Below are positions 3-61,427 of a stretch of 64,000 bases of DNA, one piece after another (within the stretch, counting starts at the first letter, position 1; every line of letters begins with the position of its first letter). The notes below the pieces were generated by a model. The model did not search any database. It had not been told where the DNA came from and saw only the letters and a program-made list of their open reading frames with translations. The stretch lies in assembly GCA_044222185.1 (NCBI GenBank), contig JBGANV010000014.1:9361-73360 (forward strand), given 5' to 3'. The stretch is from Planctomycetota bacterium. Lineage in GTDB: Bacteria > Planctomycetota > GCA-002687715 > CAIWVZ01. The position numbers were made by a program, and so were the translations under genes.

Positions 3-425
3 CGCTCGGAAGTCGTTCCGCCGAACTCGAACCGCTTCGGCCCCTCGACGCCGGGCTCGGGGAACGTTCCGCCGCAGATGCTCGCGACGTCGCCGTTGGC
101 GATCAACGTGCCTGATTGGAAGATCGGGCTCGGGCGCGCGCTCGGCGGAACGCAGGCGTTCCTCGTGCTCGCGACCAACGACTCGGTGCCGGCGACGAAC
201 ATCAATGGCCTCCTCGTCAACCTGGACATCAACCAGCTCGTGACGTCGATCCCCGTTCCGACTTCGGGTGCGGGACCCGACAACGGCGCGGCCACGGTGC
301 ACCTCGCGATCGGCAACGCCCCGGCGCTCGTCGGTGCCGACGCCTACTTCCAGTGGGTGATCTTGGATCCGGCCGGCGCGGGCGGCGTTTCTGCCTCCCA
401 GGGCGCACGCTTCCAGATCTTCTGA
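3..425 (+). CDS. 3' part of a probably secreted protein (5'-truncated by the window) ending in the recurring type I C-terminal domain
   Basis: Frame is open from position 3 to TGA 423-425. It ends ...VGADAYFQWVILDPAGAGGVSASQGARFQIF, matching the terminal motif of other secreted proteins in the window. Confidence 0.75.
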   Translation, partial: RSEVVPPNSNRFGPSTPGSGNVPPQMLATSPLAINVPDWKIGLGRALGGTQAFLVLATNDSVPATNINGLLVNLDINQLVTSIPVPTSGAGPDNGAATVHLAIGNAPALVGADAYFQWVILDPAGAGGVSASQGARFQIF

Positions 426-518
426 CGGGCCTCTGATGGCTTCGGGCGACGGGCTGCCGGCCTGTCGCCCAAATTCCTCTGCTGTTAGCCTGCGCGCTCA
501 AACAGCAGAGGCCATGTC

Positions 519-3176: not shown

Positions 3177-3508
3177 TCAACCGGAGCGCCAGGCTCGGCC
3201 TGGCTGGACCGGCGGGGCACCAGCCCCGCCGTGATCGTGGTGGTCGATCCGGTCGCGGCGGTGGCCAGATGTCAGCGGAACGAAGGTTGGCGGCGGATCC
3301 CGGCGAGTCCGGAGGCCTCGCCAACCGGCCGTGTGGAACACGGCGCTCCGACACCGCCGCAGGTGTCGCGGTGGCCCAACCCTGTTCTTCGTGAAGCGTG
3401 CCCGCCGCTCGGGCCACATGGTGCTCTGGTTCGGCCTCGTCTTCGGGTTTGGAATCTCCGGGCTGATGAACGTTTGGTGCAGCCAGCAGTGAACGCTGCG
3501 TCCGCGCC

Positions 3509-3859
3509 ATGACGGATCCCAACGCCCACGACGATTTGCCTCCGCCCGCACCGCCCGATGAACCAGTCGGATGCATCACCGTCTTCGGCACGGTGGGTCT
3601 GAGCCTCGTCATCGTGGTCGTCGACGTGACCGTCTGTGGCGTTGTCGCGTCGTGGCTGCGGACGGTGGGAGCCTCGGGCGCAGGCCAGGCGTGGTGTTTC
3701 GCCCCGATTTCCCTCCTCGAGCTGATCGCCGTGATCGTGGCCCTGCGCCCCATCAATCCGAAGATGTCGCGAGACGCAATCGCGCTGCGGGTCGGCATTG
3801 CTGCCGGCTGCGCCATCGCGGCGGGCCTGAACACGGCCTGCTGGCGTGTGTACGGCTGA
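3509..3859 (+). CDS. Small hypothetical membrane protein (about 3 TM segments)
   Basis: 116 aa: Pro-rich N-terminus followed by three hydrophobic stretches; fills the gap between alaS and the next gene. Confidence 0.55.
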   Translation: MTDPNAHDDLPPPAPPDEPVGCITVFGTVGLSLVIVVVDVTVCGVVASWLRTVGASGAGQAWCFAPISLLELIAVIVALRPINPKMSRDAIALRVGIAAGCAIAAGLNTACWRVYG

Positions 3860-3889
3860 CCGACGTCAGGGCCCGTCTCCCCCCGCCGA

Positions 3890-3895
3890 TACACT
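3890..3895 (+). promoter_or_regulatory. Putative -10 box (TACACT) of a leaderless transcript
   Basis: TAnnnT hexamer 7 nt upstream of ATG 3903, with no Shine-Dalgarno sequence. Confidence 0.5.
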
Positions 3896-3902
3896 CCGCG
3901 CC

Positions 3903-6140: not shown

Positions 6141-6181
6141 ACGCGCTGACGGCGTCGCATGAACGCGACGCCGCGAGGTCG

Positions 6182-7102
6182 TCAGAGGATCTGCAGTCCC
6201 GACGCCTGTGACAGACAGAAGCCGTCGGGCATCGATGGCGTGAGCATGATCGTCTGCGCGCCGATGAACGTGCCCTGATTCGTGAACGCCGCCGGGATGC
6301 TCCCCGGCACGAACGCGTTCTGGAACGCGCCCCCAAACAGCAGGTTGAAGCTGAGGTGGTTCAGATCGAGGTTGAAGATCTGGCCGTTGGCGGTCGTGAG
6401 GCCGAGCGGGAGCATGGGCGTGTTGACCGTGTAGGCCACGTCCCAGGGTGCGCCGGCCAGTCCCGAGAACGCGATGGTCACGGTCTGCCCGGCCGGCACG
6501 GACGTGATCGCCGGCGTGAAACCGTTCGACAGGACGCCGTCGGCCGTCATGCCGGAGCAGGCCTGATTCGTCTGCCAGGCGACGACGTTGCAGATGATGC
6601 GAAACTTCCACGCGAGGCTTTGGAAGGGCCCGCTCCATGACGCGCCGGCGTTGAACGACCCGCGATACGGCTGGATCGACGCCGTCGAGGTCACGGGTTC
6701 AACTGAAGCCTGGGCGCCGTTCTGCGGACCCCAGACGATCCAGTACGTCGCGCCCGCCGTGAGGGCGATCGGCGTCGGGAGTGTTGCGCCCTGCCAGTTC
6801 GGGGCGCCGGTCATGGACCAGGAGCCGGTGCCGAGGTTCGTGCCCGGCTGATTCGAGCCGGCATTGTGCGACCAGATCCCGATCGTGTTGGTTCCGCTGC
6901 CGATTCCCGTGAAGACCTCGACTCCCGACGCCGTGATGCCGGAGGGTGCGGTGAAGCGGATGCCGAGAAGGAGGTTTGGTCCCCCCATCGACGTGGCGGG
7001 GTCGAACGCGTTGCCTCCGTTCTCCGCGTAACAGGCTTGTGCGGCCCCGATCGAAACCAGGAGGTCGAGCGCAAGGACGGTGAAGATCATCCGGTGAAGC
7101 AT
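6182..7102 (-). CDS. Secreted protein: N-terminal beta-sandwich (DUF4082-like) plus type I terminal domain
   Basis: Signal peptide MLHRMIFTVLAL...GAA-Q. Contains LGIRFTAP...IALTAGATYWIV and ends GTFIGAQTIMLTPSMPDGFCLSQASGLQIL. Confidence 0.75.
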   Translation of the reverse strand: MLHRMIFTVLALDLLVSIGAAQACYAENGGNAFDPATSMGGPNLLLGIRFTAPSGITASGVEVFTGIGSGTNTIGIWSHNAGSNQPGTNLGTGSWSMTGAPNWQGATLPTPIALTAGATYWIVWGPQNGAQASVEPVTSTASIQPYRGSFNAGASWSGPFQSLAWKFRIICNVVAWQTNQACSGMTADGVLSNGFTPAITSVPAGQTVTIAFSGLAGAPWDVAYTVNTPMLPLGLTTANGQIFNLDLNHLSFNLLFGGAFQNAFVPGSIPAAFTNQGTFIGAQTIMLTPSMPDGFCLSQASGLQIL

Positions 7103-7263
7103 GGCTGGATTCTGCGGTTGTGTGGTCGGGTGAGCGGACGCCGATGGCGGCGGGCGCGCATTGTAGGCGACTCGCCGGCGGTAGCGCACACGACTCATTT
7201 CACTCGACACTATTGCGTCTTGTGGAATGCGGCGTTGAGATGTGACCGAAGGAACAGGCTGTC

Positions 7264-20399: not shown

Positions 20400-20672
20400 T
20401 CGACCGACGCGGCCGCCCTCGACGGGGAGCCCGCGAGCGCCAGGTGCTCCGAGGATCTCCTCTCGATCGAGCGTGCCTGACTCAGGCCAGCGCGGATTCA
20501 CGGCAATCCACCTCGGATCGCGAGTCGCGGGCGCCGCGCGCTCGGGGTCATCGGTCGTGCCCCGACCCCGCCCCGAAAACTCCCGCTCGTGCTGGCGGCA
20601 CGCGGTTTCCCTGAGATGATGGCGGCGGCTCGGATCGACCCCGAGGCCAACTCGGGGAAGGAGGCTGCGGCC

Positions 20673-21368
20673 GTGATCATCCCGTTGCGAGCGGAGTCCG
20701 GTTCGGATGCGATTCCGGTGGGGACCCTTCTGGTCCTCGCCGCGAACGTGATCGTCCACGTCGCCAGGTTCGTCGTCGAGACCGATTGGGTCGCAGCGGG
20801 GGCGCTCGCGTTCGGGAAGCTTCACCCGCACCAGTGGGTCACGAGCCTCTTCCTGCATGACGACTGGCTGCACCTGCTCGGCAACATGCTCTTCCTCTGG
20901 GTCTTCGGACTCCTCGTCGAAGCGATCTGCGGTGCGTGGAAGTTCGTCGTCGTCTTTCTGCTTTCAGGCGTGCTCGCGTCCGCGTTCGAGCAGATCATCA
21001 TGCTCGACATCAACCCGACGCTCGCCCCGCGCGAAGGGCCCGCCTACGGATTGGGAGCATCGGGCGCCATCTTCGGGCTCGCCGCCGCGGCGCTGCTGTG
21101 GGCGCCGACGGCACGCGTTTCCGGCGTCTACATGATCGGGATGCGCGCCGATACGTTCCGAGTGAAGGCCCGGACGCTGGTGGTCGGATACCTCCTGTGG
21201 GAACTCGTCGGGCTTGCGATGCTCGGATTCACCATGAGCTCCGAGCTCGGCCACGTCACGGGCGCCGTCTTCGGGTGGTTGATCGCATACGTGATGCTCA
21301 AGCTCCGTTGGGTGAACACCGAGGGATGGGACCTGCTGTCGGCGAAGAGCGGTCGCACGGCCTGGTGA
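20673..21368 (+). CDS. Rhomboid-family intramembrane serine protease
   Basis: FLH..WLHLLGNMLFLWVFG, catalytic GASG and TM6 GHVTGA; GTG start after a GGAAGGAGG RBS. Confidence 0.9.
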   Translation: MIIPLRAESGSDAIPVGTLLVLAANVIVHVARFVVETDWVAAGALAFGKLHPHQWVTSLFLHDDWLHLLGNMLFLWVFGLLVEAICGAWKFVVVFLLSGVLASAFEQIIMLDINPTLAPREGPAYGLGASGAIFGLAAAALLWAPTARVSGVYMIGMRADTFRVKARTLVVGYLLWELVGLAMLGFTMSSELGHVTGAVFGWLIAYVMLKLRWVNTEGWDLLSAKSGRTAW

Positions 21369-27102: not shown

Positions 27103-27364
27103 GGTAGCCCCCAGTTCTGCCTGCCGAGCCGAGTCGATCGTAGAGAGGCGACGGCGGCCGAGGCATGCCTCCTAGGAGGTAGAGCCGCCGCAATGGGCGT
27201 AGGCCATTCGGCTTGGGCAGTGCCGGCAGACGAGGTCCGACCGACTGGGGCGCGGCAGCCACGCGTTGGAGCGCGCCGCCCTCGCTCTCGTCGCCGATTC
27301 GTCCGCGCCTGTTAGGTCCGGACCGCGACCGCCTTCTCCTGGTACCCCATCAGGAGACTCATTC

Positions 27365-32296: not shown

Positions 32297-32402
32297 TCGG
32301 CGCGCGCGTGGCTTGCCCGGGCTCTCCCGGGCGAGTCTGCGTTTTTCCCGTTAGGTCTCGGCGGGGCTCGCCTTCATAGGGGCTCCTCACCGGAGTTTCC
32401 TC

Positions 32403-40300: not shown

Positions 40301-40376
40301 GGTCCAATGGCTCGCCCGAGAACAGCTTTTCGAGTGCGGCGTCGAACGCCGCGGATGCGGATGGATCCGAGGACAC
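37356..40376 (-). CDS. Ser/Thr protein kinase with TM helix, helical region, PEGA-like segment and C-terminal FGE-sulfatase (SUMF1) domain
   Basis: GEGGMGVV, VAVK, HRDIKPSN, DFGLAR and GTPHYASPEQ; WEKAARG.DGRLYPFG and SPFGAFDMAGSLSEW. Confidence 0.92.
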   Translation of the reverse strand: MSSDPSASAAFDAALEKLFSGEPLDLEGFLAAHPELTEEERHQLRVLAGSPDEAPRVASATSQVNGGDRLGEFHLIEPLGEGGMGVVWLAAQPSLKRRVAVKVLHATLATTREARERLLREAEALGRVQHPNVVTAISAGEANGTVFVAMEYVPGRGLDELLRDGIGSRPNPMDAVRIALDIARGLAAAHAAGVIHRDIKPSNIRITPQGRAVLTDFGLARGDLGETLTLTGVFRGTPHYASPEQVEARGALDARTDIWSLGATLYEMLAGRPPFPGGTSEQVLNAILTTDPVPLRQLVPSLPRDVEVVVAKSLERDPEARFASAAELVADLEALIDLRPIRARPPALRVRMTRAIRRRPRTAAVAAALSLTLATYLVVEAWRVIADGRRFEAEIASAVAALDREDPETAAACAGRALALRGTDPRVLALRERTTRALALRDAAELVADALSRLDRFRKLQRHTIEVEAELSKLKTIATLSHLDPKEEQRLQRLDAEIPRLIQEIDELTFGIPETITEALKRAPDVPGAADVVCGLHAERLHEAERLGDTRAADAIREALRRADRDGRFTAELLGGVLEIRAQPSDAEIHLLRYREASSVSADAPRRLVPVPLEGRWSDLEPGAPCLQVIRTTSADLLPGDVLVAVEGVTLTSTAELPALAGKRARLLRDGILVDRVLDGESELRVTVAPVLTSPQTRVGSGSGFHRELEVGSYLAVVRHDGFELQRLPVRVERGSTVKLDVTLRPPGFSPKGFVHVPAGPARVGGTPTEVRFFDACESRVATLPEFWIQDHEINWAEYAEFLNAIGPQSARAFAPRSALPGDAPDAELTPPGPGKPWQVADTEAVLPARGLTFAALEAYAAWRTDVDSKAGRPWRYRIPREIEWEKAARGADGRLYPFGSFLSQSWVSSRYALARSTYSRSMSFPVDESPFGAFDMAGSLSEWVIPDVVNHDLGTAALKGGAAVNNNPENFYTVTRLRMSPRSAMWRFGGRLVAERTDAAPDSRR

Positions 40377-45279: not shown

Positions 45280-45780
45280 ATGAGCGACCACTCCAATCGA
45301 CTGTTGTTTCCCTACCGTCCCAGATCCCGGGAGATGTGGATCTATGCCGGGTTGAGTGCGGCCATGAGCGCATCGGCCTGGACCGTGGGCGGTCTGCATC
45401 CCAGCGGTGCATTCGCAGGACTTTTCGGTGGCGATCGGGACGCCGTATCCGTGATCGCGGCGATCCTCCTGGCCGGGATCGCGCTCCTGTTCGTCGCGCT
45501 CGGACTCGGCCGCTTCTGGATCCGCGCCGTGCTGGCCGTGACTGCCGACACGTTGTTCGTTCCCGCCGGCTTTGCATGGCGCGATCACACAGCGCTTCGC
45601 CTCAACGCCATCGACACCGTCAAGGTCGTTCACTTCCTCGGAACCAGGCACGCCTACATCGGCTCGGGTTGCGTGAAGGCTCGCTTCGACGGCGACTGCC
45701 TGCCCGACAACGCAAGCTTCGATCGCGTGGTCGACCTCATTCTCGCTCGCGCCCCGCAGGCCGTGTCGACGTTTCCGTGA
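45280..45780 (+). CDS. Hypothetical membrane protein (2 TM plus PH-like domain)
   Basis: Two hydrophobic helices then a small beta-rich domain; the 3' end overlaps the convergent ECF gene. Confidence 0.55.
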   Translation: MSDHSNRLLFPYRPRSREMWIYAGLSAAMSASAWTVGGLHPSGAFAGLFGGDRDAVSVIAAILLAGIALLFVALGLGRFWIRAVLAVTADTLFVPAGFAWRDHTALRLNAIDTVKVVHFLGTRHAYIGSGCVKARFDGDCLPDNASFDRVVDLILARAPQAVSTFP

Positions 45781-48778
45781 GGCTGCGGACACGGAACGGC
45801 CTCTTCTCCTCGGGGCCGATCGTGATGCGCACCTCCTGGCCGGCATGGCTTTCCGAGATCGTGGCCAGCGTGTCACCGCGCCTCGGCCCGACGGTCGCGA
45901 TGAACCGGTAACGGCCGGGCACGAGCCGCATGGTGAGTTCCGACTGGTTTGAGTCGCGAGGTGTCCCCGCACCAGTCCAAGCGGTCACGAGTCGGCCCCC
46001 GTCTTCGTCTTCGACGGAGAAGCCCGCTTGGGCGCCCTGATCGGCGGCAGAGTGCTCGCTTCGCAAGGTGACTCGGACGCCCGCTCTGACGACGAGTGTG
46101 GCGCGCGTGGTTTCGCCCGGCAGGACATCGACGGGAAATCGTTGCGGCGCGACGTCCGCTCCCGAAACCGCGACGATGTATCGCCCGGGCGCAAGCCGAT
46201 CGGCGCAGAGTCCGTCTGGTTCGCGGCGGAACGTCAGGTCCGACCAGCCCTGCTTGCCGGGGCGACGGACGACGGCCGTCAGGTTCTTGAGCGAGGCACC
46301 ATCCTCCGAGCAGAACCGCGCCTCGATCGCGCCCCCGGGTGACAGCCTCACCGCGGCCAGGTCCCAGGTCTCACCCGCGAGCAACATTCGTTCTCCGATG
46401 GGTTCGACCTGACCCTCGGGAGCGGAGATCTGGACCGTGTATTTCGAGGGCATCAGCGGGCCGAGGCGGAACGCTCCGGTCTGATCCACCGCGACCTCGC
46501 TGCCGAAATTCGCCTCATCCAGGGTGGCCCGGGCCTGGACCGTCGCGGCGCCGGCCGCGGTGCCGTCGATGCCGATCACCCGACCCACGATGAACGCGGA
46601 GGGAAGCCGGCTGGGAGGGATCCTCGCGACGACCTCATCGCCGCCGGGAGTGACGTCCGCTACCCGACCGATCTCGACGTTTTGCGCGGACGGTCCACGG
46701 ACCACCACCGTCACGGCGGCCGTCGACGGAAGGAGCAACGCGGTCTGTCCATTGCGGTCGGTGAAGCCACCGACGGGCGCACTGCGACGGCCCGTGACGC
46801 TGACCTCGCTCCGGGGGCGCAGCACCTCGGTCCAGCAGTTGGCGACCGGCGCGTTGCTCTCGTCGACGACACGCAGGCGCAGGACCCTGTCCGGTTCGAA
46901 GACGGGGTTCCATCGGATCACGGCCCCGGTGGGCTCGGGCAATTCGGCCGTGAGAGTCCCGAAGCCCGGGCTCCAGAACGCTGCCCAACGGACGTTTCGC
47001 GACAGCCCGGAAATTGCGAACGCTCCGTCCGCGGCTACGACCATCGTTGCGGCCGACGTGAACTCCGTTTCACCGACTCGGAGCAGTCCCGACACGGGTT
47101 CGCCGGTACTGCGACGCGCGGTGCCTTCGAGGCGGATTCCCCGCGGCAGCCGGGCGTGTACGGTCTGGCGCTCGCCCTCTTCGATCTGCACTCCACATTC
47201 GAACGCGTCGAGCCCGAGCGAAGAGACGTGCACGTCCCATCGATCCGCCGGAAGGGACTCGATGAGGGCGATGCCATCACCGTCTGCTTCGGCGTGGCGC
47301 GCGTAACGGGTCCGGGTCCGTGCTCCGCTGGCCTCGGGAAGGTCACCGGAACCCGACACGACACGAATCCGCGCGTAGGGGATTGGTCGACCGTCCGGAT
47401 CGGTGACCACCACACTGAGGCTGCCGGCTCCGGCCGCAAGCACGAGGCGGACGGCGCGGCGCGCGTTGCCGAACGCCCAGTGCGCGTTGACGGCCTTGAC
47501 GAGGTGCCAGCCGCTCAACTCGGCGCCCACGAGCACGTCGTCGCCGTCGACCTCGATGGCGAAGCGTCCGGCAGCATCCGATTGAACGCCGGACAGCGAA
47601 CGGCCGTCGTTTGCCTGGGCGTTACTCGTCAGCCACACCGCGGCGCCCGAGACTGGCGTTCCGTCGTTGGCGACCACGAGCCCGTCGATGACGAAGCGCG
47701 GCGTAATCGAAATCCCGATGTCGACCGTGCGGTCGGCGACGACGGTCGCCGTGGAGGTGTCTTTGCTCCGATCCGTCGTCAGTCGATAGCCGTCAGGTGC
47801 GAGGTTGTCGAACGTCGCCGAGCCGTCGACGCCGCTCACGCTTCGGCGGAGCAAACTGCCGTCGATGCCCGCGCCGACGCTCACGACGACGCCGGCGAGC
47901 GGCGCGCGAGTGTCCTTCCGATGCACGTGAACCGTGAGCCGGCCAGTGGTCCGTGGGTCGTGGAATGGCACGACCACGATCCCGGCTTCATCCCTCGGGC
48001 GGGACTCCGCGCCCAGGATGCCGCCGCGAGCCTGTGGGAAGCGGGGCGCCGTGGACACGGTCTCGCGCACATCGACCGGCGCTGAAGGGCCGCGCGGAAC
48101 ATCCGCATTCTCGTGTCGTGCCAGGTATGCCACGCCGGCAAGCAGGCACAGGGCCGCCACTCCAATCGCAACCTGCGATTTCGTCATGATCGCGACTCCG
48201 CTTGCGACGGCGACCGTCGTTCCCGCACCGGCTTTCGCGGCGAACCCCGATCCGCAGAGTGGAAGCAGCGCGAACTTCCAATCTCCCGCGTGGCCTTCGC
48301 CCAGCCGTTCGCGCAACTGCTCGATTGCGCGCCGAAGCCGCGTGCGCACGGTCTCGACGGGCACACCGAGCCGCGCGGCGATGTGGCGGGGCGGGAGTCC
48401 CTCGAAGTAACGCAAGAGAACGACGGCGCGGGAATCCGAACCCAGTGCGAGCACGGTGTCGACCAGGGCTCGTCGCGCGTGCTCGCGTTCGAGGATCTCG
48501 CCGGTGCCGTCGCAGCGACTCGGCGACGGGGCGCGCCGCTCATGCCGCTCCCTCCGCGCGCGGGAAGTCGCCGTGTTCGACGCGAGCCGGCGCACGATCG
48601 TCGCGAGCCACGCCTTGACGGACACCACGTGATGGACCGGGCGACGTGCGACGGCCAGCCAGACGTTCTGCGCGAGGTCATCCGCGTCGCCCTCGTCGTC
48701 GACGAGTCGACGCGCCAAGGCCCGGACGAAGCCGTCGTGTTCGGTCAACTCCCGGTGATCCAGGCGCATCGGATTCAT
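45737..48778 (-). CDS. ECF sigma-70 factor with C-terminal TM helix and extracytoplasmic carboxypeptidase-regulatory-like repeats
   Basis: Region 2 (VRALARRLV.DEGDADDLAQNVWL...WLATIVR) and region 4 (RYFEGLPPRHIAARLGVPVETVRTRLRRA), TM AIGVAALCLLAGVAYLA, then ~800 aa of beta-sandwich repeats. Confidence 0.9.
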   Translation of the reverse strand: MNPMRLDHRELTEHDGFVRALARRLVDDEGDADDLAQNVWLAVARRPVHHVVSVKAWLATIVRRLASNTATSRARRERHERRAPSPSRCDGTGEILEREHARRALVDTVLALGSDSRAVVLLRYFEGLPPRHIAARLGVPVETVRTRLRRAIEQLRERLGEGHAGDWKFALLPLCGSGFAAKAGAGTTVAVASGVAIMTKSQVAIGVAALCLLAGVAYLARHENADVPRGPSAPVDVRETVSTAPRFPQARGGILGAESRPRDEAGIVVVPFHDPRTTGRLTVHVHRKDTRAPLAGVVVSVGAGIDGSLLRRSVSGVDGSATFDNLAPDGYRLTTDRSKDTSTATVVADRTVDIGISITPRFVIDGLVVANDGTPVSGAAVWLTSNAQANDGRSLSGVQSDAAGRFAIEVDGDDVLVGAELSGWHLVKAVNAHWAFGNARRAVRLVLAAGAGSLSVVVTDPDGRPIPYARIRVVSGSGDLPEASGARTRTRYARHAEADGDGIALIESLPADRWDVHVSSLGLDAFECGVQIEEGERQTVHARLPRGIRLEGTARRSTGEPVSGLLRVGETEFTSAATMVVAADGAFAISGLSRNVRWAAFWSPGFGTLTAELPEPTGAVIRWNPVFEPDRVLRLRVVDESNAPVANCWTEVLRPRSEVSVTGRRSAPVGGFTDRNGQTALLLPSTAAVTVVVRGPSAQNVEIGRVADVTPGGDEVVARIPPSRLPSAFIVGRVIGIDGTAAGAATVQARATLDEANFGSEVAVDQTGAFRLGPLMPSKYTVQISAPEGQVEPIGERMLLAGETWDLAAVRLSPGGAIEARFCSEDGASLKNLTAVVRRPGKQGWSDLTFRREPDGLCADRLAPGRYIVAVSGADVAPQRFPVDVLPGETTRATLVVRAGVRVTLRSEHSAADQGAQAGFSVEDEDGGRLVTAWTGAGTPRDSNQSELTMRLVPGRYRFIATVGPRRGDTLATISESHAGQEVRITIGPEEKRPFRVRSLTETSTRPAGRERE

Positions 48779-48796
48779 TGGTTTGCTCCGCCCATG

Positions 48797-48824
48797 AGAC
48801 ATCGCTCCGAGCGGAATCGGTTCC
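48797..48824 (-). promoter_or_regulatory. Candidate ECF-type (autoregulatory) promoter GGAACC-N18-GTCT
   Basis: Minus strand reads GGAACC gattccgctcggagcgat GTCT just upstream of the ECF start; the spacer is slightly long. Confidence 0.3.
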
Positions 48825-48984
48825 CATCTTCGCCGAACCGGGACGAACCGAGCGAAAGTTGTCCAAGTTCCGGGCCGGACGGTCATCAGTCATCGGCGAC
48901 GTGCGCGTCGAGTCCCCCGTGCAGTCTGCGATGCGCGCCAGTCCGAGTCCGCCGAATTGTCGGCTGGCTCGCCGAGGTCCGATC

Positions 48985-50298: not shown

Positions 50299-50415
50299 CG
50301 ATCCTGAGCGTCTCGACGAGTTCGCCCGCTGGGGCGGCGGCGCGCCTGTATGATCCCTCCGCGTCAGCCCGGAAGATGTCGCGCGCGCCAGCGCACGACG
50401 CGAGGAGGAACTCAG

Positions 50416-52245
50416 ATGCGGCGACTGCCCCTGATCGTGCTCGTGGTCGTGTCGATCGTCGGTGCGCAGCAGCCCAACTCGATCGGAGGACGACTCGCCT
50501 GGAACGGCGTCGATGGGCCACCGTGGCCGATCGCTGCGCTCGTGAACGGCCAAGGCGGCGCCGTGACGCTCGAGATCGGCGGTTCGACGCAGCAGCCATT
50601 CGCGCTGGTGGTCTCACGCGCGGGGTTGCTGAGTAGCGGGCTCGCGACGCCGCACGGAGTCCTCGACGTGGATCTGGCGACCTTCGAATGGGTCGCGGAT
50701 GGGCTGTCGCCCGCGGGCGGCCCGCTCGACGCGCTCGCCGTGCTCGATCCGTCGGGGCGTCGCGTGTTCGTCGCACCCATCCTGCCGACGAGCAGCACGG
50801 CGCTCGGTGCGTGGCAGGCAGCCGTCGCCGATCCGGCGAGCCCGTTCGGAATGACGCTCACCGCGGCGACCGCGCTCGCGCTCTCTCAACTCCCGGGGAC
50901 GGCGATCTACGTGTCGTCATCGACGGGCTCGCCCTCCAATCCCGGGTCGGCGTCGGCGCCGCTGGCGACGATCACGGCGGGCGTGGCGGCGTCGGTGTCG
51001 CACGGCGTTCCTCATCCGCCCGTGTTCGTGGCGGCGGGAACCTACGTTGAATCGCTCACGATCCCTGCGGGTCTGTCGCTGCATGGCGGATTGGATTCAC
51101 AGGGCTGGCACTACGCGGGCAACGCCACGTCGACCGTTCTGGTCGGTACGTCACCGGCCGTCATCGCGTCCGCAAGCGGAGCTTCGGCGTCGATCACGGG
51201 CATGACGTTCGTCGCGTCGTCACCCTCGCAGGCCGGTGCGTCCTCGATCGCCGTGCGCGTCGTCGGATCGGGCTCGGGCCTGACGTTCGAGAGCTGCCGA
51301 TTCCACGCGGCGAACGCCGCGGCCGGAACGAACGGTGTCGCGGGCGCAGCGGGGGCAGTTGGCGAAGACGGGCACTACGAGCTTTGGTGGAGTTATACGT
51401 CGATCTGGAATCAATCGGCGCTTCTCGGGCAGCCCGGCAACGGAGCGCGGCCGGGTGGCGCCGGCGGCGACGGCGGGCGCGTGAACGGATTTCCGTACGA
51501 CGGGCAGGCGGGACAGACGGCGCCGCTCGGTGGAGGTGCTGGCGGATTCGGAAGCCAGATGATCGGCGGGTTTCCGCCGAACAACGGAGCCTCGGGGCCC
51601 GGCGCGGGACAGCCGGGCGCGGCCGGCGCGCCGGGCGCACATGGCATCGCGTCGAGCGTCGCCGGGCTCGTCGTCAACGGCGCGTGGACCGCGGCGCCGC
51701 CAGCCGGTGATGGTGTGATCGGCGGGCTTGGACTGGGTGGAGGCGGAGGCGGCGGAAGCTGCACCTACGCCGGCATGAATGGCCATTGCGGTGGCGGGGG
51801 CGGTGCTGGCGGAAGTCCTGGTGCCGGTGGCCTCGGTGGCTGGAATGGTGGCGCGTCGATTGCCGTGCTCGTCGTCGATGCGTCGCCCACGTTCCGCGGA
51901 TGCGATCTCGTCGCCGGAACTGGCGGCGTGGGCGGAAGCGGGGGCGCCGGCGGTGCGGGTGGAGCTGGTGGAGTGGGCGGCGGGTCGTTCCTCGGGAGCG
52001 TCGTTCCTCACGGCGCTCACGGCGGTGCGGGCGGGGCTGGCGGACCGGGTGGCGGAGGCGGAGGCGGTGCGGGCGGTCCGAGCTGGTGCATGTTCCGCGC
52101 GGGCGCGAGCCAGCCGGTCGTCTCGTCGTCCGTCATGTTTTCCACGAGCCAGGGCGGAGCGGGCGGTTCGGGCGGAGCGCGGGGCGATGGTTTGACGGTC
52201 GCGCCGAGCGGCGCCGCGGGCGCGTCCGGCGCCCTGGGCCCCTGA
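50416..52245 (+). CDS. Secreted protein: type I domain at the N-terminus, DUF1565/beta-helix segment and Gly-rich (PE-PGRS-like) tail
   Basis: GAGGAGG RBS; signal ending VGA-Q; IYVS...G...NPGS...PLATI...VFVAAGTY; long GGxGGxGG runs. Confidence 0.8.
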   Translation: MRRLPLIVLVVVSIVGAQQPNSIGGRLAWNGVDGPPWPIAALVNGQGGAVTLEIGGSTQQPFALVVSRAGLLSSGLATPHGVLDVDLATFEWVADGLSPAGGPLDALAVLDPSGRRVFVAPILPTSSTALGAWQAAVADPASPFGMTLTAATALALSQLPGTAIYVSSSTGSPSNPGSASAPLATITAGVAASVSHGVPHPPVFVAAGTYVESLTIPAGLSLHGGLDSQGWHYAGNATSTVLVGTSPAVIASASGASASITGMTFVASSPSQAGASSIAVRVVGSGSGLTFESCRFHAANAAAGTNGVAGAAGAVGEDGHYELWWSYTSIWNQSALLGQPGNGARPGGAGGDGGRVNGFPYDGQAGQTAPLGGGAGGFGSQMIGGFPPNNGASGPGAGQPGAAGAPGAHGIASSVAGLVVNGAWTAAPPAGDGVIGGLGLGGGGGGGSCTYAGMNGHCGGGGGAGGSPGAGGLGGWNGGASIAVLVVDASPTFRGCDLVAGTGGVGGSGGAGGAGGAGGVGGGSFLGSVVPHGAHGGAGGAGGPGGGGGGGAGGPSWCMFRAGASQPVVSSSVMFSTSQGGAGGSGGARGDGLTVAPSGAAGASGALGP

Positions 52246-53619: not shown

Positions 53620-53675
53620 TCGCAGGGCATCGCGGCCGCGCGGCGACGGCCGTTCGAGATCGGATGGAGAAGGGA

Positions 53676-55085: not shown

Positions 55086-55127
55086 TCGCGAGACGCCTGC
55101 GACTCGATTCCGGACGATCGTGCGCCG

Positions 55128-55476
55128 GCGGGCGTGGCCTTCGAAGATCAAACCGACGTAGCGGACGCGCGACGGCCGCCGGCATCGGCATGATCATCGA
55201 ACGTGACGCGGCGCATCGAAGTCGGGCGGCCCGGTCGAGACGACCGGCGATCCTGCCAGAGGCCCGGCGCCGAGCGCCGGGACCTCTGGCGCTCCTCGCG
55301 CGGGGACGGCGAACTCGCGGGGGCGCCGCGGGCGCGAGCCCGCTGCGGAGCGCCGCACGACCGCTCGCGAAACGAGCGCGCGTGCGGCCGGATCGCCGGT
55401 CGTCTCGACCGGTCCGGCGTGCATGAGTTCGCGGGCGTGGCCTTCGAAGATCAAACCGACGTAGCGGACGCGCGAC
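55128..55476. repeat. Composite intergenic repeat: perfect 46-bp direct repeats (55128-55173, 55431-55476) enclosing perfect 22-bp inverted repeats (55231-55252, 55391-55412)
   Basis: DR gcgggcgtggccttcgaagatcaaaccgacgtagcggacgcgcgac occurs twice; IR is ccggtcgagacgaccggcgatc / gatcgccggtcgtctcgaccgg. Confidence 0.88.
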
Positions 55477-55650
55477 TCGCTGCATCGGACCACCGTCGCG
55501 AAGCCGTTCCCTACCGCGCATGGAAGTCGCGGCGACGCACAGGCGTATTCCACGAGCCTTCGCGCACATCGCCGCACGACCAGGGATTCGCGTCCGCCTC
55601 CCGTGCGCCGCGCCGCCACGCGCTCCGGTCCGTGTAAGATCCCCGCCGGC

Positions 55651-57873
55651 ATGGGGCGGTACTTCATCAGCTACAGCGGGGCGGACGAGAAGTGGGCTCG
55701 CTGGATCGCCGAGCAGATCCGGTCGTTTGGTCACGAGACGGTCGTCCAGGCGGAGGACTGCGGCGCGGGGTCGAACTTCGTCGTCGACATCGATGAAGCG
55801 TTACGCGGGATGACGGGGCTCGTGTCGCTGCTCTCACCGGCCTACATCAAGTCCAGGTGGTGTCGCGAGGAGTGGGCGCGCATTCTCAAGGCCCGCGTCG
55901 ACGGGAAGAAGCTCGACTGGGTTCTGCTCCGTGTTGCGCACGTCGACCCGCCAGGACTGCTCGACGGGATCGTCTACCTGGACCTCGTGGGCCAGACGAA
56001 GTCGGACGCGACCGAGAGCCTGCGTGCCCACTTTGCACCGGCCGCGACCGCGGCGCGTGGGGGCGCGTTCCCAGGCACCGCACGATTCCCCGGAGGATCG
56101 CCGCTCCATGGCGTCCCACGACCGACGGACACGTTCGTCGGTCGCGAGGCCGAGGTCGCCGAGCTGCGCCGATGCCTCACGCGCACCGGCGGAGCCGTGT
56201 CGGTGGCGGCGGCCCTGGATGGCCTCGCCGGCGTCGGCAAGACCGAGCTTGCAGCCTACGCCGCATTCGCGTTTGCCGCAGAAGACCTCTTTCCCGGCGG
56301 GATCTTCTGGCTCAGCGCCGAGAACCCGGACCTGCGCGGGCACTGGGGCGGTTTCATCGGCGATCACCTGAAGGCCGTCGGCGACACGCTCGATGCGCGC
56401 GCCTCCGATGCCATCCGACGAATCAATGGACAGTCGGCGCGCACGCTCGTCATCCTCGACAACGTGGCGAGTTGGGAGCGCGACAAGCGACCCTCACCAC
56501 TGCCGGAAGGTGCGCACGTCGCCATCCTGGCGACGACCCGCCGTTCGCGGCTCTCCTCCACGTTCCACCACGTGGGGTTGAAGGTCCTCCCGCGGCACGC
56601 CGCCGAGCAGCTCGTCCTCGCCGTTGCCGACCGCGAACTTTCATCGGCACCCGGATTCTCGGACCTCATGCAGCATCTCGACGGCCACGCCCTCGCGTGT
56701 GAGCTCGCGGGAGCGACGCTGCGCGAGTTCCCCGAGCTCACCCCGCGAACGTACCTGGAGCACCTCCATTCAGGCCGCGATCCTGCGGGCGCCGTCGCCG
56801 GCACGACGAACTACGAGCGGACGGTCAAGCAGGCGTTCGACACGCTCTGGGCGCGAGTCGACGATGCAACACAGGACGCGTGGCTGCTCGCCGCGTGCTT
56901 CGCGCCCGAGCCCGTTGATCCCGCGTTCTCCGACACGGTCGGTCTGGACGCAGCCGCGCGCCATTCCCTCCGGCGCTTCCACCTCATCGACGACCTGGGT
57001 GATGGCGTGTGGAAGATGCACCGGCTGACGGCGGCATTCGCGTCGGCCGTCGATGCTGCACGCGCGGAAGCCGTCGCCGCAAGGTTCATCGACGGGATCG
57101 CAAAGGAGGCGAAGAAGATCGACCAATCGTTGGGCTTCCGCATCTACCTCGCCTCGCGCCCCCACTTCGACGAAGCGATCGGGCGCGGTCGGAAGCTGAC
57201 ACCGCGCCCCTCCTGCATGTCATCCATCGAGACCTACCTCGGCCGTGCTCATTGCAGCCTCGGTTTTTTTGAGTCCGCCAGGGATCTTTACCAGGCCGCC
57301 CTGGATGCCGATCTACGGAACCATGGTCCCGACTCGCCGGCTGTCGCCATCCGGCGCTCGAACCTCGCCACGGTGCTCCAGGACCTCGGTGACCCGGCCA
57401 GCGCGAAGACGCATCTCGAGGCCGCGCTCGCCTCGGACCTGCGCACCTTCGGGGCGGAGCACCCGAAGGTCGCCATCCGGCGCTCGAACCTCGCCCTGGT
57501 GCTCAAGGACCTCGGTGACCTGGCGGGCGCGAAGACGCATCTCGAGGCTGCGCTCGCCTCGGACCTGCGCACTTTCGGCGAAAACCACCCGGAGGTGGCG
57601 ACGGACCGCTCGAACCTCGCCCTGGTGCTCCAGGACCTCGGTGACCTGGCGGGTGCGAAGGCGCATCTTGAGGCTGCGCTTGCCTCGGGCCTGCGCACCT
57701 TCGGGGAGGACCACCCGAAGGTCGCCATCCGGCGCTCGAACCTCGCCGCGGTCGTCAGCGAACTCGCAAAGAGGTCCGAAGAGACCACCGCCGTCGCCGA
57801 GACGGCCGCCGTTAGCGACACTCTCCGGCATCGCATCCAGCGCTTCCTCAAGCGCGCGTTTCGCCGCCGTTGA
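55651..57873 (+). CDS. TIR - NB-ARC (STAND NTPase) - TPR protein (NLR-like)
   Basis: TIR FISYS..D..WARWIA...SRWCREEW; FVGRE, Walker A GLAGVGKT, Walker B LVILDNV, TTR and MHRL (MHD-like); 42-aa TPRs. TAAGAT -10 box at 55635-55640. Confidence 0.9.
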   Translation: MGRYFISYSGADEKWARWIAEQIRSFGHETVVQAEDCGAGSNFVVDIDEALRGMTGLVSLLSPAYIKSRWCREEWARILKARVDGKKLDWVLLRVAHVDPPGLLDGIVYLDLVGQTKSDATESLRAHFAPAATAARGGAFPGTARFPGGSPLHGVPRPTDTFVGREAEVAELRRCLTRTGGAVSVAAALDGLAGVGKTELAAYAAFAFAAEDLFPGGIFWLSAENPDLRGHWGGFIGDHLKAVGDTLDARASDAIRRINGQSARTLVILDNVASWERDKRPSPLPEGAHVAILATTRRSRLSSTFHHVGLKVLPRHAAEQLVLAVADRELSSAPGFSDLMQHLDGHALACELAGATLREFPELTPRTYLEHLHSGRDPAGAVAGTTNYERTVKQAFDTLWARVDDATQDAWLLAACFAPEPVDPAFSDTVGLDAAARHSLRRFHLIDDLGDGVWKMHRLTAAFASAVDAARAEAVAARFIDGIAKEAKKIDQSLGFRIYLASRPHFDEAIGRGRKLTPRPSCMSSIETYLGRAHCSLGFFESARDLYQAALDADLRNHGPDSPAVAIRRSNLATVLQDLGDPASAKTHLEAALASDLRTFGAEHPKVAIRRSNLALVLKDLGDLAGAKTHLEAALASDLRTFGENHPEVATDRSNLALVLQDLGDLAGAKAHLEAALASGLRTFGEDHPKVAIRRSNLAAVVSELAKRSEETTAVAETAAVSDTLRHRIQRFLKRAFRRR
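57343..57747 (+). repeat. Near-identical 126-bp tandem repeats encoding kinesin-light-chain-type TPRs
   Basis: gtcgccatccggcgctcgaacctcgcc occurs at 57343, 57469 and 57721, with a variant at 57595. Confidence 0.9.
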
Positions 57874-57904
57874 CGCCAGCGCGTCGTCGACCCCGTAAAA
57901 GAGA

Positions 57905-57957
57905 GCACCCTGACGACCTTGCGGCTGTCAGGGTGCGTGATGACCCCCGAACGGGGG
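57905..57957. terminator. Twin hairpins between convergent genes (possible bidirectional terminator)
   Basis: gcaccctgac/gtcagggtgc 10-bp stem plus a cccccg/cggggg stem; no clear U-tract. Confidence 0.4.
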
Positions 57958-57965
57958 CGCCTCGA

Positions 57966-60900
57966 TCACAGCGTCACCTGATCCCACGCCCACGTCACGT
58001 TCACGCCGAGCGGCTGGTTGGCGTCCAGGTAGATCACCTGGACGTTCACCGTGATGCCGAGCGGCGGGTTGGGCATCTGGATCTGCGGCGATTGGAACAC
58101 GCCGCCCCCATCCGACTGAGCGCCGTCCGGCGTGCCGAACATGCCGATGCCGTCGAAGAGCGGGAACCAGGAACTCGAACCCGCCACTTCGGTCACTCCG
58201 ATGACCCAGTTCGTGCCCGGGTCGGGGAATCCGCCGACCGGCGTCGGCGTGCCCGTGTCGATGATCATCGTGAGCGGCGAATTGCCCACGGGGAACTCGG
58301 CCCACGAAACGAACATGGCACCAGGCGCCGGTGCGAGGGGATGCGTGCGAATCATCCCCATGTTGCTTCCGCCATCGATGACCAGCGGATAACCGTTCGA
58401 CACTGCCGCCTCACCGTGCTGCGCGAAGAACGCGACGGCGCCCGTCTTCGTGAGCTGCGTGATCTGCGCCGGATCCACCGTGACGTCGATGTTGTTTTCG
58501 TCGATGTAGGTCACGGGAACCGGCACGCCGTTGGCAAACACCTGGGTGAACGGGCGGAAGTAGCTCCCGTACAGCCCGATGGTGACGGGGCCCGCGCTCG
58601 GCGCCATGGCCGGGATCTGCGACGGTGTCGTCCAGGCGATGCCGGGGGAGGCGAGAAGAATGTACGCGACCGCAGACTCGCCGCCGTCGGGCGCGGGATT
58701 GAACACGGTCACCGCGGCCGCGCCGGCGTAGAGGAACAGCGACGCGTCGATGTCCGCGACGAGATCCGTCGACGAGACGTAGGTCGTCGGGACGTCGACG
58801 GCGTTCCACCGCACGACGGCGCCGGGAACGAAGTCCGACCCGGTGACCGAGATCTGCGTCGTGGGGTCACCGACGACGAGGAGACTCGGTGTCATGACCG
58901 CGATGCTCGGGACCGGGTTGCCGATGCCGAATGGCAGCGTGGCGGACGACCCATATCCGGGCGTCGTCACGGACACGGACGCCGAACCGGCCGAGGTCAG
59001 GAGGGACGAGTCGACGTCCGCCGACAGCTCCGTCGAGCTGACGAACGTCGTCGTCAGAGGCGAGCCGTTCCACAGCACGACGGACGAGGCATCGAAGTCC
59101 GTGCCGTAGACGCTCATGGTGAACGAAGGGCTGTTCGCCGGCGCGCTCGCCGGCGAGATCGACGAGAGGATCGGCGGTTGGATCGTCGACTGCGTCGCCC
59201 ACGCCGAGACGTTGGCGAGCGTCGTCGATCCGCCGTTGTGACGGACGACGATGCAGTACCAGCCCGGTTGGGTTAGCGGCACGAGGATGGGCGCTCCACT
59301 GACAGTCTGGCCGTGGAGCATTGCCCCCGAACGCGACCGCCACGCCGAGGTCGAACCCGGAGCATGAAGGTCCCACTCGTATCCGGACGGTGCCTGCACG
59401 TGCAACTCGAAGTTGCCCGGCGCCGTCACCTGGAACTCGAACGCCAGCAGCATGTACGTGTACGAGTTCGTGGAGCCCGGGAACGCGCTGAACGTCGCCG
59501 TCGGCGCGAATTGCAGCTCGCCGGTCGATCCGGGGAACGCATAAGGCGACGTTGCACCGACGGTCGGCGTGATGGAGCCGGCGTGCCCGTTGGCGAGCAC
59601 GTAGTCGCACTGGTTGCTGCCGTACTGCGAGACGGCCGGGCCGATCTGGATGTCCCAGTCGCTCGGCGAAGAGACGCCGACGACGTTCCACCGGTTCGCC
59701 ATGGCGTTGACGTTGAACGGCTGGAACGAGTACGGGCCCTGGAACACTTGCGTGATCGAGTTCGACGAGAAGAGCTGCACGGGCGTGAAGTCGAAGCCCA
59801 TCAGCGCCGTCATGTCCACCGTGCTGGCGACCGGTCCACCGTTGCTGTAGACGACGAGGACGTAATTCGTGGAGACGATTCCGATCCCCGCCACCGGCGG
59901 TCCGCCCACGTCACCCTGCGCGACGACGTACGAGCCCGTCGACGAGCGCCAGCCGAACGTGTTGCCCTGCCAGAGGAGCTTCCAGCGAAGGCCCGGAGGT
60001 CCCGCGACCTGGAGTGTTCGCGTGCTCACGGCATTGGCGCTGATGTGCAGCGCGGTGACGATCGAGCCCGCCGGCATGCTGAAGATCGTCGGCTGGCCGT
60101 TGTTCAGCGGCGTCGACCGCACGTATTGGAGCGTCGCCGGCGTGTTGCCCGAGTAGTGCGTGATGTTGCCGACGTTCGGCGTCACGGTGCCGTTGCCGAA
60201 GAAGCCGCTGCCCACCACGAAGTCGCAGGTGTTGCCGCCCGCCGCTGCGCTGGCGCCGCCCATCGTGATGTCCCAGTCGGTCGTCGACGAAACGGCGCAG
60301 ACGTTGAATTGCGAGTAGCTCGGCGGGCCGATGGAGAATGCCTGGCAGCCGTTGGTCGTCGTCGTGGCGACGCCGGGCGTGAGCACCGTTGTGCTGGAGC
60401 CGCAGTTCACCGTCAGCTGCTGCGTGAAGAGTGCCGCGCCGCCGCCCGGGGCCGGGTTGATGACCGAGATCGTCACGGTCTGGGGCTGCGAGATCAAAGA
60501 GGGCGGGATCTGCGCCTGCACCTGCGTGGGGCTGACGAACGTCGTGGGAATGATGGTTCCGTTCCAGGTGATCTTCGTCCCCTGGACGCCGTATCCGTTC
60601 GGCGAGCCCTCGAAGAACCGGGCGCCGTAGACGTTCAGCGTGAACCCAGGCGAACTCGTCTGCACGGTCGTCGGTGAGATGAAGTTGATGTCGGGGAAGA
60701 TGGGCGCCAGGTACCGCGCCTGGATCGCGTATCCGTCCGCTGCGGTCATGTAGGTGCGCTGCCCGATCTGGCCCTGGAACTGCGAGTACCCGGGGAGACA
60801 GTTGATCGTGTTCTGCCCGTTCGACGAAAACGCCGTGGGCCCGTAGTGCATGATCGAGAGGAAGTCGTAACCAGACGTGTAGGTCACCTGGTTCGCGTTG

Positions 60901-61427
60901 ATCAACGTGAAGTTGTGTTGCAGGTTTCCCGGGACGTTGTTCAGGTTGATGGCGACGAAGTTGTCGCGATCGGGGCGCTGATGCTCGTGGATGTAGCCGA
61001 GCGCGTGCATCAGCTCGTGCACGATCACGTACTTGGTGCCCCAGCTCGTGATCTTCACGGTCTGCATGCCGCCGATCTTGCCGACGGGGGATTGGTTCAC
61101 CGTGTCCGCCTGGAACTCGATCCAGTCCGCGTGGTTCGTCCGCGGGATGAAACTCACGAACGCGACACCGGCGATGTCCTGCATGGCCTTCAGCGCCTGC
61201 GCCTGCTGGGTCGCATTGACGTTGGCGTTGAAGGTGTAGGGAACGATGCCGCCCGGCCACACGGTGGCCGTGAAGGCTCCATCGCTCGCGAGCGCCGAGA
61301 TCGGGAGGAGCATGTCGTCCATGAGGACGAAGCCCTCAGGGACTTCGGAGGGGTCCTGGGCGATGGCCGGTGCGCTCATCACCAGGGTGGAAAAAACGAG
61401 GAACCACGCGCCAACGAGGCGATTCAT
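57966..61427 (-). CDS. Secreted astacin-family (M12A) zinc metallopeptidase with WNVV modules, IPT/TIG domains and type I C-terminal domain
   Basis: WPGGIVPY, HELMHALGYIHEHQRPDRD and Met-turn SIMHY; signal ending AIA-Q; ends NPPLGITVNVQVIYLDANQPLGVNVTWAWDQVTL. Confidence 0.92.
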   Translation of the reverse strand: MNRLVGAWFLVFSTLVMSAPAIAQDPSEVPEGFVLMDDMLLPISALASDGAFTATVWPGGIVPYTFNANVNATQQAQALKAMQDIAGVAFVSFIPRTNHADWIEFQADTVNQSPVGKIGGMQTVKITSWGTKYVIVHELMHALGYIHEHQRPDRDNFVAINLNNVPGNLQHNFTLINANQVTYTSGYDFLSIMHYGPTAFSSNGQNTINCLPGYSQFQGQIGQRTYMTAADGYAIQARYLAPIFPDINFISPTTVQTSSPGFTLNVYGARFFEGSPNGYGVQGTKITWNGTIIPTTFVSPTQVQAQIPPSLISQPQTVTISVINPAPGGGAALFTQQLTVNCGSSTTVLTPGVATTTTNGCQAFSIGPPSYSQFNVCAVSSTTDWDITMGGASAAAGGNTCDFVVGSGFFGNGTVTPNVGNITHYSGNTPATLQYVRSTPLNNGQPTIFSMPAGSIVTALHISANAVSTRTLQVAGPPGLRWKLLWQGNTFGWRSSTGSYVVAQGDVGGPPVAGIGIVSTNYVLVVYSNGGPVASTVDMTALMGFDFTPVQLFSSNSITQVFQGPYSFQPFNVNAMANRWNVVGVSSPSDWDIQIGPAVSQYGSNQCDYVLANGHAGSITPTVGATSPYAFPGSTGELQFAPTATFSAFPGSTNSYTYMLLAFEFQVTAPGNFELHVQAPSGYEWDLHAPGSTSAWRSRSGAMLHGQTVSGAPILVPLTQPGWYCIVVRHNGGSTTLANVSAWATQSTIQPPILSSISPASAPANSPSFTMSVYGTDFDASSVVLWNGSPLTTTFVSSTELSADVDSSLLTSAGSASVSVTTPGYGSSATLPFGIGNPVPSIAVMTPSLLVVGDPTTQISVTGSDFVPGAVVRWNAVDVPTTYVSSTDLVADIDASLFLYAGAAAVTVFNPAPDGGESAVAYILLASPGIAWTTPSQIPAMAPSAGPVTIGLYGSYFRPFTQVFANGVPVPVTYIDENNIDVTVDPAQITQLTKTGAVAFFAQHGEAAVSNGYPLVIDGGSNMGMIRTHPLAPAPGAMFVSWAEFPVGNSPLTMIIDTGTPTPVGGFPDPGTNWVIGVTEVAGSSSWFPLFDGIGMFGTPDGAQSDGGGVFQSPQIQMPNPPLGITVNVQVIYLDANQPLGVNVTWAWDQVTL

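Follow-up and report, generated by a model that had tools for sequence, protein, structure and literature searches.

An undescribed superfamily of terminal Ig-like beta-sandwich domains on predicted exported proteins in a planctomycete genome

A shared terminal tag on exported proteins is a kind of arrangement already known from other phyla. The C-terminal domains (CTDs) of Bacteroidota's type IX secretion system (T9SS) (type A, Por_Secre_tail, TIGR04183/PF18962; type B, TIGR04131) are roughly 70-100 residues long and occur once, at the extreme C-terminus of many unrelated proteins with a Sec signal peptide; they are lineage-restricted and have tens to hundreds of carriers per genome. Dockerins (with cohesin) and SLH domains are portable, mostly terminal modules, found at either end of dozens of enzymes with unrelated catalytic parts, and the LPXTG/sortase, PEP-CTERM/exosortase, MYXO-CTERM/myxosortase and GlyGly-CTERM/rhombosortase signals are tails of 25-40 residues in which a motif is followed by a transmembrane (TM) helix and basic residues. 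TIGR03437, the 'Solibacter uncharacterized C-terminal domain', defines a large lineage-specific paralogous family by its C-terminal domain. The name 'choice-of-anchor' is given to passenger domains found on surface proteins whose C-terminal anchor is one among several alternatives (10.1101/2023.03.06.531300). Here, a stretch of 64,000 nucleotides (the window; contig JBGANV010000014.1, G000:C5:9361-73360; GC ~68%) from the assembly of a Planctomycetota bacterium (7.08 Mb, 16 contigs, 93.8% complete) was analyzed, in which five predicted secreted proteins end in related domains (the tag).

The tag resembles T9SS CTDs in the features listed above other than length, and in passenger families that overlap; it differs in its length of 125-140 residues, in giving no sequence match, in its phylum, in that SprA and PorV were not found, and in that it also occurs N-terminally, internally and on one inner-membrane kinase. 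With dockerin and SLH domains it shares portability and a mostly terminal place, at either end, on unrelated enzymes, and on choice-of-anchor proteins of another genome of the phylum the same slot is taken by Asp-rich ends that are dockerin-like by eye, with Dockerin_1 unmatched. Fold and sequence differ, the tag being a predicted beta-sandwich, not helical, with no Pfam Dockerin_1 match on the tails and a stricter terminal position. The motif-TM-basic signals occupy the same C-terminal slot on choice-of-anchor passengers, but the tag is a folded domain of 125-140 residues with no TM helix. For TIGR03437, which the tag recalls as a large lineage-specific family, no protein of this genome matched at E ≤ 1e-4, and only TIG-like parts of another genome's proteins were matched. 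The reading preferred below, held tentatively and at somewhat less than an even chance, is that the domain is a non-covalent envelope-attachment handle.

Three families of one domain superfamily

The five tails, ~125-140 residues long, all finish in a strand-like stretch in which a Gln is conserved, with a turn of the form D/x-P...P-x-G and a hydrophobic terminus, and had been read in a first-pass annotation as the same domain. A hidden Markov model (HMM) of the five tails matched 26 further ORFs of the genome at E ≤ 1e-12, always at the very end, and the resemblance is therefore far beyond chance. A profile of one family, A (A2, an alignment of 29 paralogous tails), recovered its three window tails at E 4e-54 to 1e-44. 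The tails of 3-425 (family B) and 6182-7210 (family C) were not in the genome match list of A2, and hhalign of the family A profile with these single tails was not significant, with E 0.12 and 0.037 and alignments confined to the final 22-25 residues. Families B and C were built by iterative searches seeded with these two tails (inclusion 1e-6). Profile-profile comparison then linked all three families: A-B with a probability of 96% (E 4e-9, 99 columns), A-C with 97% (E 9.3e-11, 107 columns) and B-C with 97.6% (E 3.2e-12, 104 columns), and the independent family HMMs cross-matched window tails at 2e-10 to 5e-5. By the paralogue profile and the profile-profile links the tails are significantly related; the 'same domain' of the annotation holds as homology within a superfamily (profile-profile probability 96-98%), but not as a single family. 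The tails belong to a superfamily that has not been described, made up of three families of terminal Ig-like beta-sandwiches, ~125-140 residues long and present once per protein. As had been noted, a TM helix and a basic tail are absent from all five, which end in a beta-strand. Family B has two conserved Cys, which suggests a disulfide.

The domain is new to curated libraries. No Pfam-A or NCBIfam model matched 29 family A tails at E ≤ 10, no NCBIfam model matched 29 family B tails at E ≤ 1, and Pfam gave no match on any tail of 40 whole family B/C proteins at E ≤ 0.01; an already characterized family, which the annotation had named as a possible refutation, was thus not met with in Pfam or NCBIfam. 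A sequence profile search of the PDB gave a best E of 0.34, and no paper listed in literature searches was on such a domain in Planctomycetes. AlphaFold2 predicted an all-beta model for family A (pLDDT 79.2, pTM 0.73) and a ten-strand sandwich, with high confidence, for the family B tail of 3-425 (pLDDT 93.3, pTM 0.86). The structure check that had been proposed was therefore answered in part: a sandwich was predicted, but Foldseek gave no match at E ≤ 0.001 for either model and the fold is a generic Ig-like one. VIA-align listed only Ig, macroglobulin and CBM-type domains, with best Z of 6.3 (rmsd 3.5, 97 aligned) and 7.9 (rmsd 2.5, 85 aligned), a range that the tool's own scale calls a 'common arrangement'. 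The nearest clusters in the ESM Atlas were all 'hypothetical protein' entries without Pfam, commonest in Planctomycetota, and one NCBI-named homologue from the family B profile search came from a Planctomycetota metagenome-assembled genome. A lone Roseisalinus locus matched with one tail was set aside as spurious, as no family HMM matches it. DUF1559 had no match in the genome, and the control genomes were likewise silent.

All five proteins named in the annotation exist and translate as it had claimed. The first (3-425, + strand) is the last 140 codons and stop of a protein of 558 residues, MauG/di-haem cytochrome c peroxidase-like, whose start lies upstream; its cargo had correctly been placed outside the window. 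The full ORF (L039) matches CCP_MauG, and the family B domain lies at 27-413 (family B HMM E 6e-28). The second (6182-7210, - strand, likely start 7102) has a signal peptide, a DUF4082 / choice-of-anchor R-like domain (PF13313 E 6.8e-9; NF041539 27.5 bits, below the cut-off of 30) and a family C domain at 6194-6583, 3 residues short of the C-terminus (family C HMM E 1.1e-38). The third (27266-32296, + strand, likely start 27365) consists of a signal peptide, a trypsin-like head, repeated middle modules, six choice-of-anchor Z (CoaZ) repeats and a family A domain at 31868-32293 (A2 profile E 3.6e-54), the head being assigned by paralogy with proteins that match Trypsin/Trypsin_2. The fourth (32403-37334, + strand; family A domain 36906-37328, A2 profile E 5.8e-51) is its tandem paralogue of the same architecture, as the annotation had recognized. 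The fifth (57966-61496, - strand, likely start 61427) has a signal peptide, an astacin (M12A) head (Astacin E 1.7e-39), middle modules, four CoaZ repeats and a family A domain at 57972-58388 (A2 profile E 1e-44). Likely starts (27365, 7102 and 61427) were chosen as a Met followed by a signal-like stretch. A sixth carrier (50350-52245, + strand) has a signal peptide, an N-terminal family C-type domain directly behind it (50461-50877; family C HMM E 8.6e-29, A2 profile E 3.1e-5) and a Gly-rich region without annotation; no Pfam family matched this ORF.

The passengers had been called unrelated. Several head types are indeed present, but the three family A proteins share their CoaZ stalk (NF058597, TIG-like; 242-309 bits, above the curated cut-off) and their repeated middle modules. 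The latter are 3-4 repeats of ~190 residues with a recurring 'WNVV...DWD' motif, placed between protease head and CoaZ stalk in 27266-37334 and 57966-61496, and no annotation was found for them in Pfam or NCBIfam.

Across the genome (4479 gene-like ORFs from a crude GC3-based selection), the union of the three families comprised 227 ORFs, each with at most one copy, and in 177 the domain ended ≤15 residues from the C-terminus; the carriers make up ~4% of the gene-like ORFs and ~7% of their residues. Family A had 30 strong terminal copies. Family B was found in 154 ORFs, in 141 of them ending ≤15 residues from the C-terminus, with at least six copies directly after a signal peptide. In family C, the domain reached this distance in 7 of the 47 ORFs, and 31 had 200-250 residues more behind it. 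Signal-like N-termini, called by a crude hydrophobicity rule, were frequent (A 27/30, B 122/153, C 37/47), compared with 1327/3059 among other ORFs, a high background that marks the rule as permissive. Among the signal-like members, a small-x-small-Gln pattern followed the hydrophobic core in 81% (A), 78% (B) and 84% (C), vs 32% of other ORFs. The numerous, terminally enriched matches on signal-bearing proteins that the annotation expected were accordingly present, and with them the combination of terminal position and Sec-type signal. In one class, probably of Planctomycetota, the superfamily marks a large share of the predicted Sec-exported proteins. Gln behind small-x-small at the predicted signal peptide end was seen in the window at, for example, 27365, 32403, 61427, 7102 and 50413. 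Gln after signal cleavage (pyroglutamate) is a habit of Bacteroidota; a plant-type glutaminyl cyclase had no match in the genome, and the M28 type was not searched for.

Numbers and positions of this kind also suit a true sorting signal, a functional analogue of the T9SS CTD, in which an outer-membrane translocon would recognize the folded sandwich in the periplasm, after which it would be cleaved and/or swapped for a covalent anchor by a sortase-like enzyme. The single copy, its place at the very C-terminus with little variation in the distance to the end, the dozens to >100 cargo proteins per genome, and a Sec-type signal followed by Gln in 78-84% of signal-like members, which recalls the Bacteroidota pattern, agree with this reading. 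T9SS CTDs have a beta-sandwich fold (PMC4804311). The predicted fold of the tag is likewise a beta-sandwich, and the C-terminal end of PorU stood in the VIA-align list (Z 6.5, rmsd 3.6, 105 residues), tied with dozens of unrelated Ig domains. Passenger families shared with T9SS cargo are GBD_T9SS_assoc, Ig_7 (CHU_C associated), PPC and GEVED. We nevertheless regard a sorting signal as rather unlikely, on the evidence of the machinery searches and of the N-terminal, internal and inner-membrane-kinase copies given below.

Passengers and the choice-of-anchor slot

Family A proteins begin with a signal peptide and a head, continue with repeated modules that have no annotation and then 1-22 CoaZ/TIG repeats, and close with the tail. 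Single-linkage clustering of the heads gave one group of 20 (several with Trypsin or Trypsin_2), four astacins, two subtilases and four singletons, which include one DUF7948 protein and one head-less protein (signal peptide, repeats, tail). In this head-stalk-tail order the enzyme head lies far from the tail. A tree of 30 family A tails did not follow head type: the astacins need 4 changes, as in shuffles, and the DUF7948 protein and the head-less protein nest within starred clades of the large head group. Head types are thus mixed in well-supported clades, and the tail behaves as a portable module, so that the stalk plus tail appears to have been recombined with different heads. In six ORFs of ~1250-1540 residues a single CoaZ repeat lies close to residue 400, and the conserved C-terminus is of another kind, '...LEFD(T/S)' (at C6:525191-533313, C2:55080-58979, C8:130366-134268, C1:1991917-1996539 and C6:91322-95065); these may bear another terminal module.

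In a sample of 30 family B proteins the passengers were varied: eight proteins had FG-GAP propellers, three had GBD_T9SS_assoc and two were MauG-like di-haem enzymes, a type to which the window's own carrier adds one more, together with Ig I-set arrays, TIG, a plastocyanin-like domain, matrixin, DUF4394, Kelch, DUF7948 with SBBP, LTD with PPC and MopE, and one Ser/Thr kinase. The kinase carrier (L092) has its kinase domain at 117-387 and a single TM segment at ~425-445, followed by ~780 residues that end in the family B domain; the domain can therefore be part of a protein that is fixed in the cytoplasmic membrane. Heads of family C are Laminin_G_3, GEVED or DUF4082, and a NIDO-like domain of ~210 residues follows the sandwich. 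The NIDO-like domain occurs in 44 ORFs of the genome (e.g. L101-L110), behind the family C sandwich in 32 and before a terminal tail in several others, and Pfam NIDO matched one member, weakly (E 1.8e-4). It was considered as a Rosetta-stone receptor for the tag and rejected: both domain orders were seen, and no scaffold emerged.

The family A heads belong to three peptidase classes (trypsin-like, astacin, subtilase), and secreted bacterial peptidases often bear removable C-terminal sandwiches, which would suit a C-terminal pro-domain or intramolecular chaperone of the PPC kind that aids folding or latency and is removed after secretion. Such a role is very unlikely, given that most family B passengers are not peptidases, that one family A protein goes from signal peptide straight to repeats and tail with no head, and that a long stalk separates head and tail; moreover, PF04151 (PPC) matches no tail, its sole match being internal (L096, residues 883-950).

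Another reading is a localization-independent module for ligand or substrate binding (CBM-like, adhesin-like) or self-association, which would target enzymes to substrates or assemble complexes. It would fit a generic sandwich with CBM- and Ig-type neighbours at Z 5-8, the occurrence of the domain at either end of and inside proteins, the many carriers that are hydrolases, and the copy on a sensor kinase, where ligand binding is natural. It remains doubtful, however, since two copies per protein were never seen and the end position is almost fixed, since redox enzymes, propellers and pure repeat proteins have no obvious common substrate, and since the domain fills the exact slot in which choice-of-anchor Z proteins elsewhere carry their anchors.

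That slot was defined by the CoaZ repeats, which were found in 44 of the 121 genomes of the phylum sample, well beyond family A. In this genome 29 of 38 CoaZ-repeat ORFs end in family A. Alternative endings were read in 11 CoaZ proteins of other genomes: two (G033, G098) end in Cys, TM helix and basic tail, their passengers resembling myxosortase-dependent or MYXO-CTERM proteins at sub-threshold scores; three (all G044) end in Asp-rich repeats that are dockerin-like by eye only, with no match to Pfam Dockerin_1; one, from the same order as the present genome, ends in a superfamily domain (family B HMM 1.1e-5); and the remainder have other ends. In the present genome no recurrent tail family was found among 54 C-terminal TM-plus-basic candidates, a regular-expression scan gave 0 dockerin-like pairs, sortase (PF04203) and exosortase (PF09721) had no matches although controls rang for both, and the rhombosortase model found five rhomboids, the best at 48.2 bits vs a cut-off of 84; myxosortase was not searched for. 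The statement that the tails are not LPXTG, PEP-CTERM or GlyGly-CTERM signals was borne out by these searches together with the missing motif-TM-basic end. With CoaZ proteins elsewhere bearing such endings, and with no recurrent TM-plus-basic tail, dockerin-like pair, sortase or exosortase found here, the tag sits in the anchor slot, and among the indirect arguments that it anchors or sorts proteins this position is the strongest. A rhomboid protease gene lies in the window at 20481-21365 (+ strand), ~6 kb upstream of the tandem family A genes; with 23.5 bits on the rhombosortase model, its product reads as an ordinary rhomboid.

Distribution, candidate machinery and gene neighbours

Among 1.84 billion cluster representatives, 166 matched family A at E ≤ 0.001 and 137 at ≤ 1e-10. 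Position was counted in the 141 listed representatives that reach the profile end: family A ended ≤7 residues from the C-terminus in 138, and 131 of these had L, F, I, Y, M or V as their final residue. Strong family A matches (E < 1e-20) were present in 6 of 40 relatives (4/4 of the own family, 2/8 of a second family). Another 12 genomes of the same order gave weaker matches (1e-4 to 1e-10), which probably reflect cross-hits to families B and C; of 18 genomes taken from elsewhere in the phylum, none matched family A, which is restricted to the class. Family B was found in all 23 genomes of the class sample, which come from one order, at 8-117 matches per genome (E ≤ 1e-8), and in 24 of the 121 genomes of the phylum sample, consistently within multiply sampled families (3/3, 2/2, 2/2); the sampled phylum is probably Planctomycetota. 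At loci from other genomes, 11/11 family B and 6/6 family A domains ended 0-6 residues before the stop. DNA nearly identical to that of the tandem family A genes (window 27400-37300) was present in activated-sludge and bioreactor metagenome runs of several studies; contigs from four DNA runs (two studies other than the possible source) spanned all 30 bins as short pieces, with substitutions only and no indels listed; joints in these contigs, with sides of fewer than 30 letters, were disregarded.

Components of known export systems were sought in the genome. The T9SS CTD model (TIGR04183) had no matches, the controls also being silent, and SprA/Sov (TIGR04189) had none either, with no control genome ringing; PorV (NF033710) was unmatched in the 93.8%-complete genome, and its control rang in Bacteroides thetaiotaomicron. 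Peptidase_C25 (the gingipain/PorU family) was present in two strong copies (C1:676846-679443 and C1:2006638-2011524), one of them 1.6 kb from a family A gene. It was found in 67 of the 121 phylum genomes, in 16 of 24 tag-positive and 51 of 97 tag-negative ones. As a dedicated sortase it was rejected, as it is not co-distributed with the tag and its own proteins do not carry the tag. The co-distributed translocon or sortase that the first-pass annotation had looked to was hence not found, Peptidase_C25 being the sole candidate profiled. These results, and the lack of any recurrent non-regulatory neighbour, count against a sorting signal, with the reservation that the controls were silent for the CTD model and SprA.

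Neighbours were analyzed for the 204 superfamily genes within the gene set. The only recurrent groups were a large cluster with Ser/Thr kinases, which is heterogeneous, having been formed by single linkage, and includes FG-GAP proteins, and an eight-member ECF sigma family. Of 36 family A-type loci, 15 lay within two genes of a kinase, compared with 3.3 +/- 1.75 at random (maximum 11 in 1000 draws); 111 ORFs of the genome have a kinase domain. This enrichment points to regulation and not to transport, and the proximity, which is an association only, is possibly regulatory. In the window, a Ser/Thr kinase fused to an FGE-sulfatase-like domain (37356-40376, - strand; Pkinase E 1.3e-45, FGE-sulfatase E 2e-18) is encoded next to the tandem family A genes. 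An ORF of 1049 residues at 45740-48889 (- strand) joins an ECF-type sigma-70 factor (regions 2 and 4) to several CarboxypepD_reg-like domains, and small ECF sigma genes related to it recur next to tag genes elsewhere in the genome.

Two further features of the window were recorded. The product of 55465-57870 (+ strand) has TIR_2, then an AAA_16/NB-ARC-like NTPase, then TPR repeats, a putative STAND-type architecture that resembles anti-phage or signalling NTPases. Close to the contig end, 62396-63616 (- strand) encodes a transposase with rve integrase core and HTH domains.

Possible role in the cell envelope

Under the preferred reading of an attachment handle, a carrier would be exported by Sec and its signal peptide cut, usually just ahead of Gln. 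The domain would then fold in the envelope, in family B perhaps with a disulfide, and would serve as a common non-covalent handle that binds a shared envelope component, either a glycan or a receptor protein. The working part, be it a protease head on a TIG/CoaZ stalk, an FG-GAP propeller or a haem enzyme, would thereby be held on or in the envelope, in the role that dockerins, SLH domains or retained C-terminal domains of the T9SS have elsewhere. This reading is preferred because it explains the anchor slot, the head-stalk-tail order and the N-terminal, internal and kinase-borne copies, and needs no missing translocon. Such places are normal for a binding module but would be abnormal for an export signal; the copies directly after a signal peptide (at least six), those internal to most family C proteins and the one on the inner-membrane kinase agree better with a module that binds or anchors than with an export signal strictly confined to the C-terminus.

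Several points weigh against an attachment handle. No receptor, scaffold or ligand was identified, only Ser/Thr kinases and ECF sigma factors recurring beside the genes. Most binding modules are less strictly terminal than families A and B, with their near-obligate place at the extreme C-terminus, and this favours a sorting signal. MauG-like and plastocyanin-like passengers are typically periplasmic and one carrier is an inner-membrane kinase, and the tag may therefore act not at the cell surface but in the periplasm, which is enlarged in planctomycetes. The calls of signal peptides depend on the crude hydrophobicity rule with its high background, the predicted Ig/macroglobulin-like sandwich is a generic fold that carries no functional information, and among the sequencing runs listed with the window region none was an RNA run. 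All tests that were run agreed with the lineage-specific export or attachment signal that had first been proposed: the restriction to a lineage, the terminal position, the signal-bearing carriers and the diversity of passengers, which are of extracellular type, stood, while the role itself, whether anchoring or sorting, is inferred.

The most far-reaching outcome, which we consider improbable, would be that the class and several other families of Planctomycetota have a sorting system of their own, a counterpart of the T9SS, in which a terminal sandwich of ~130 residues would direct ~4% of the proteome to the outer membrane, across it or onto it, by way of an undescribed translocon, shuttle and processing enzyme, with family A as a branch for stalked surface proteases. 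Even if the tag is only a binding module, it represents a large domain superfamily absent from Pfam and NCBIfam. Export past the outer membrane and retention at the surface are poorly understood in planctomycetes, and the classical C-terminal sorting systems tested were not found here. The tag, with ~180 terminal carriers in this genome, universal in one class (23/23) and present in a fifth of the phylum sample, offers a handle for finding the machinery. With it, the exoproteome of uncultured planctomycetes in sludge and bioreactors, which includes a large arsenal of stalked proteases, can also be predicted by a simple rule on sequence.

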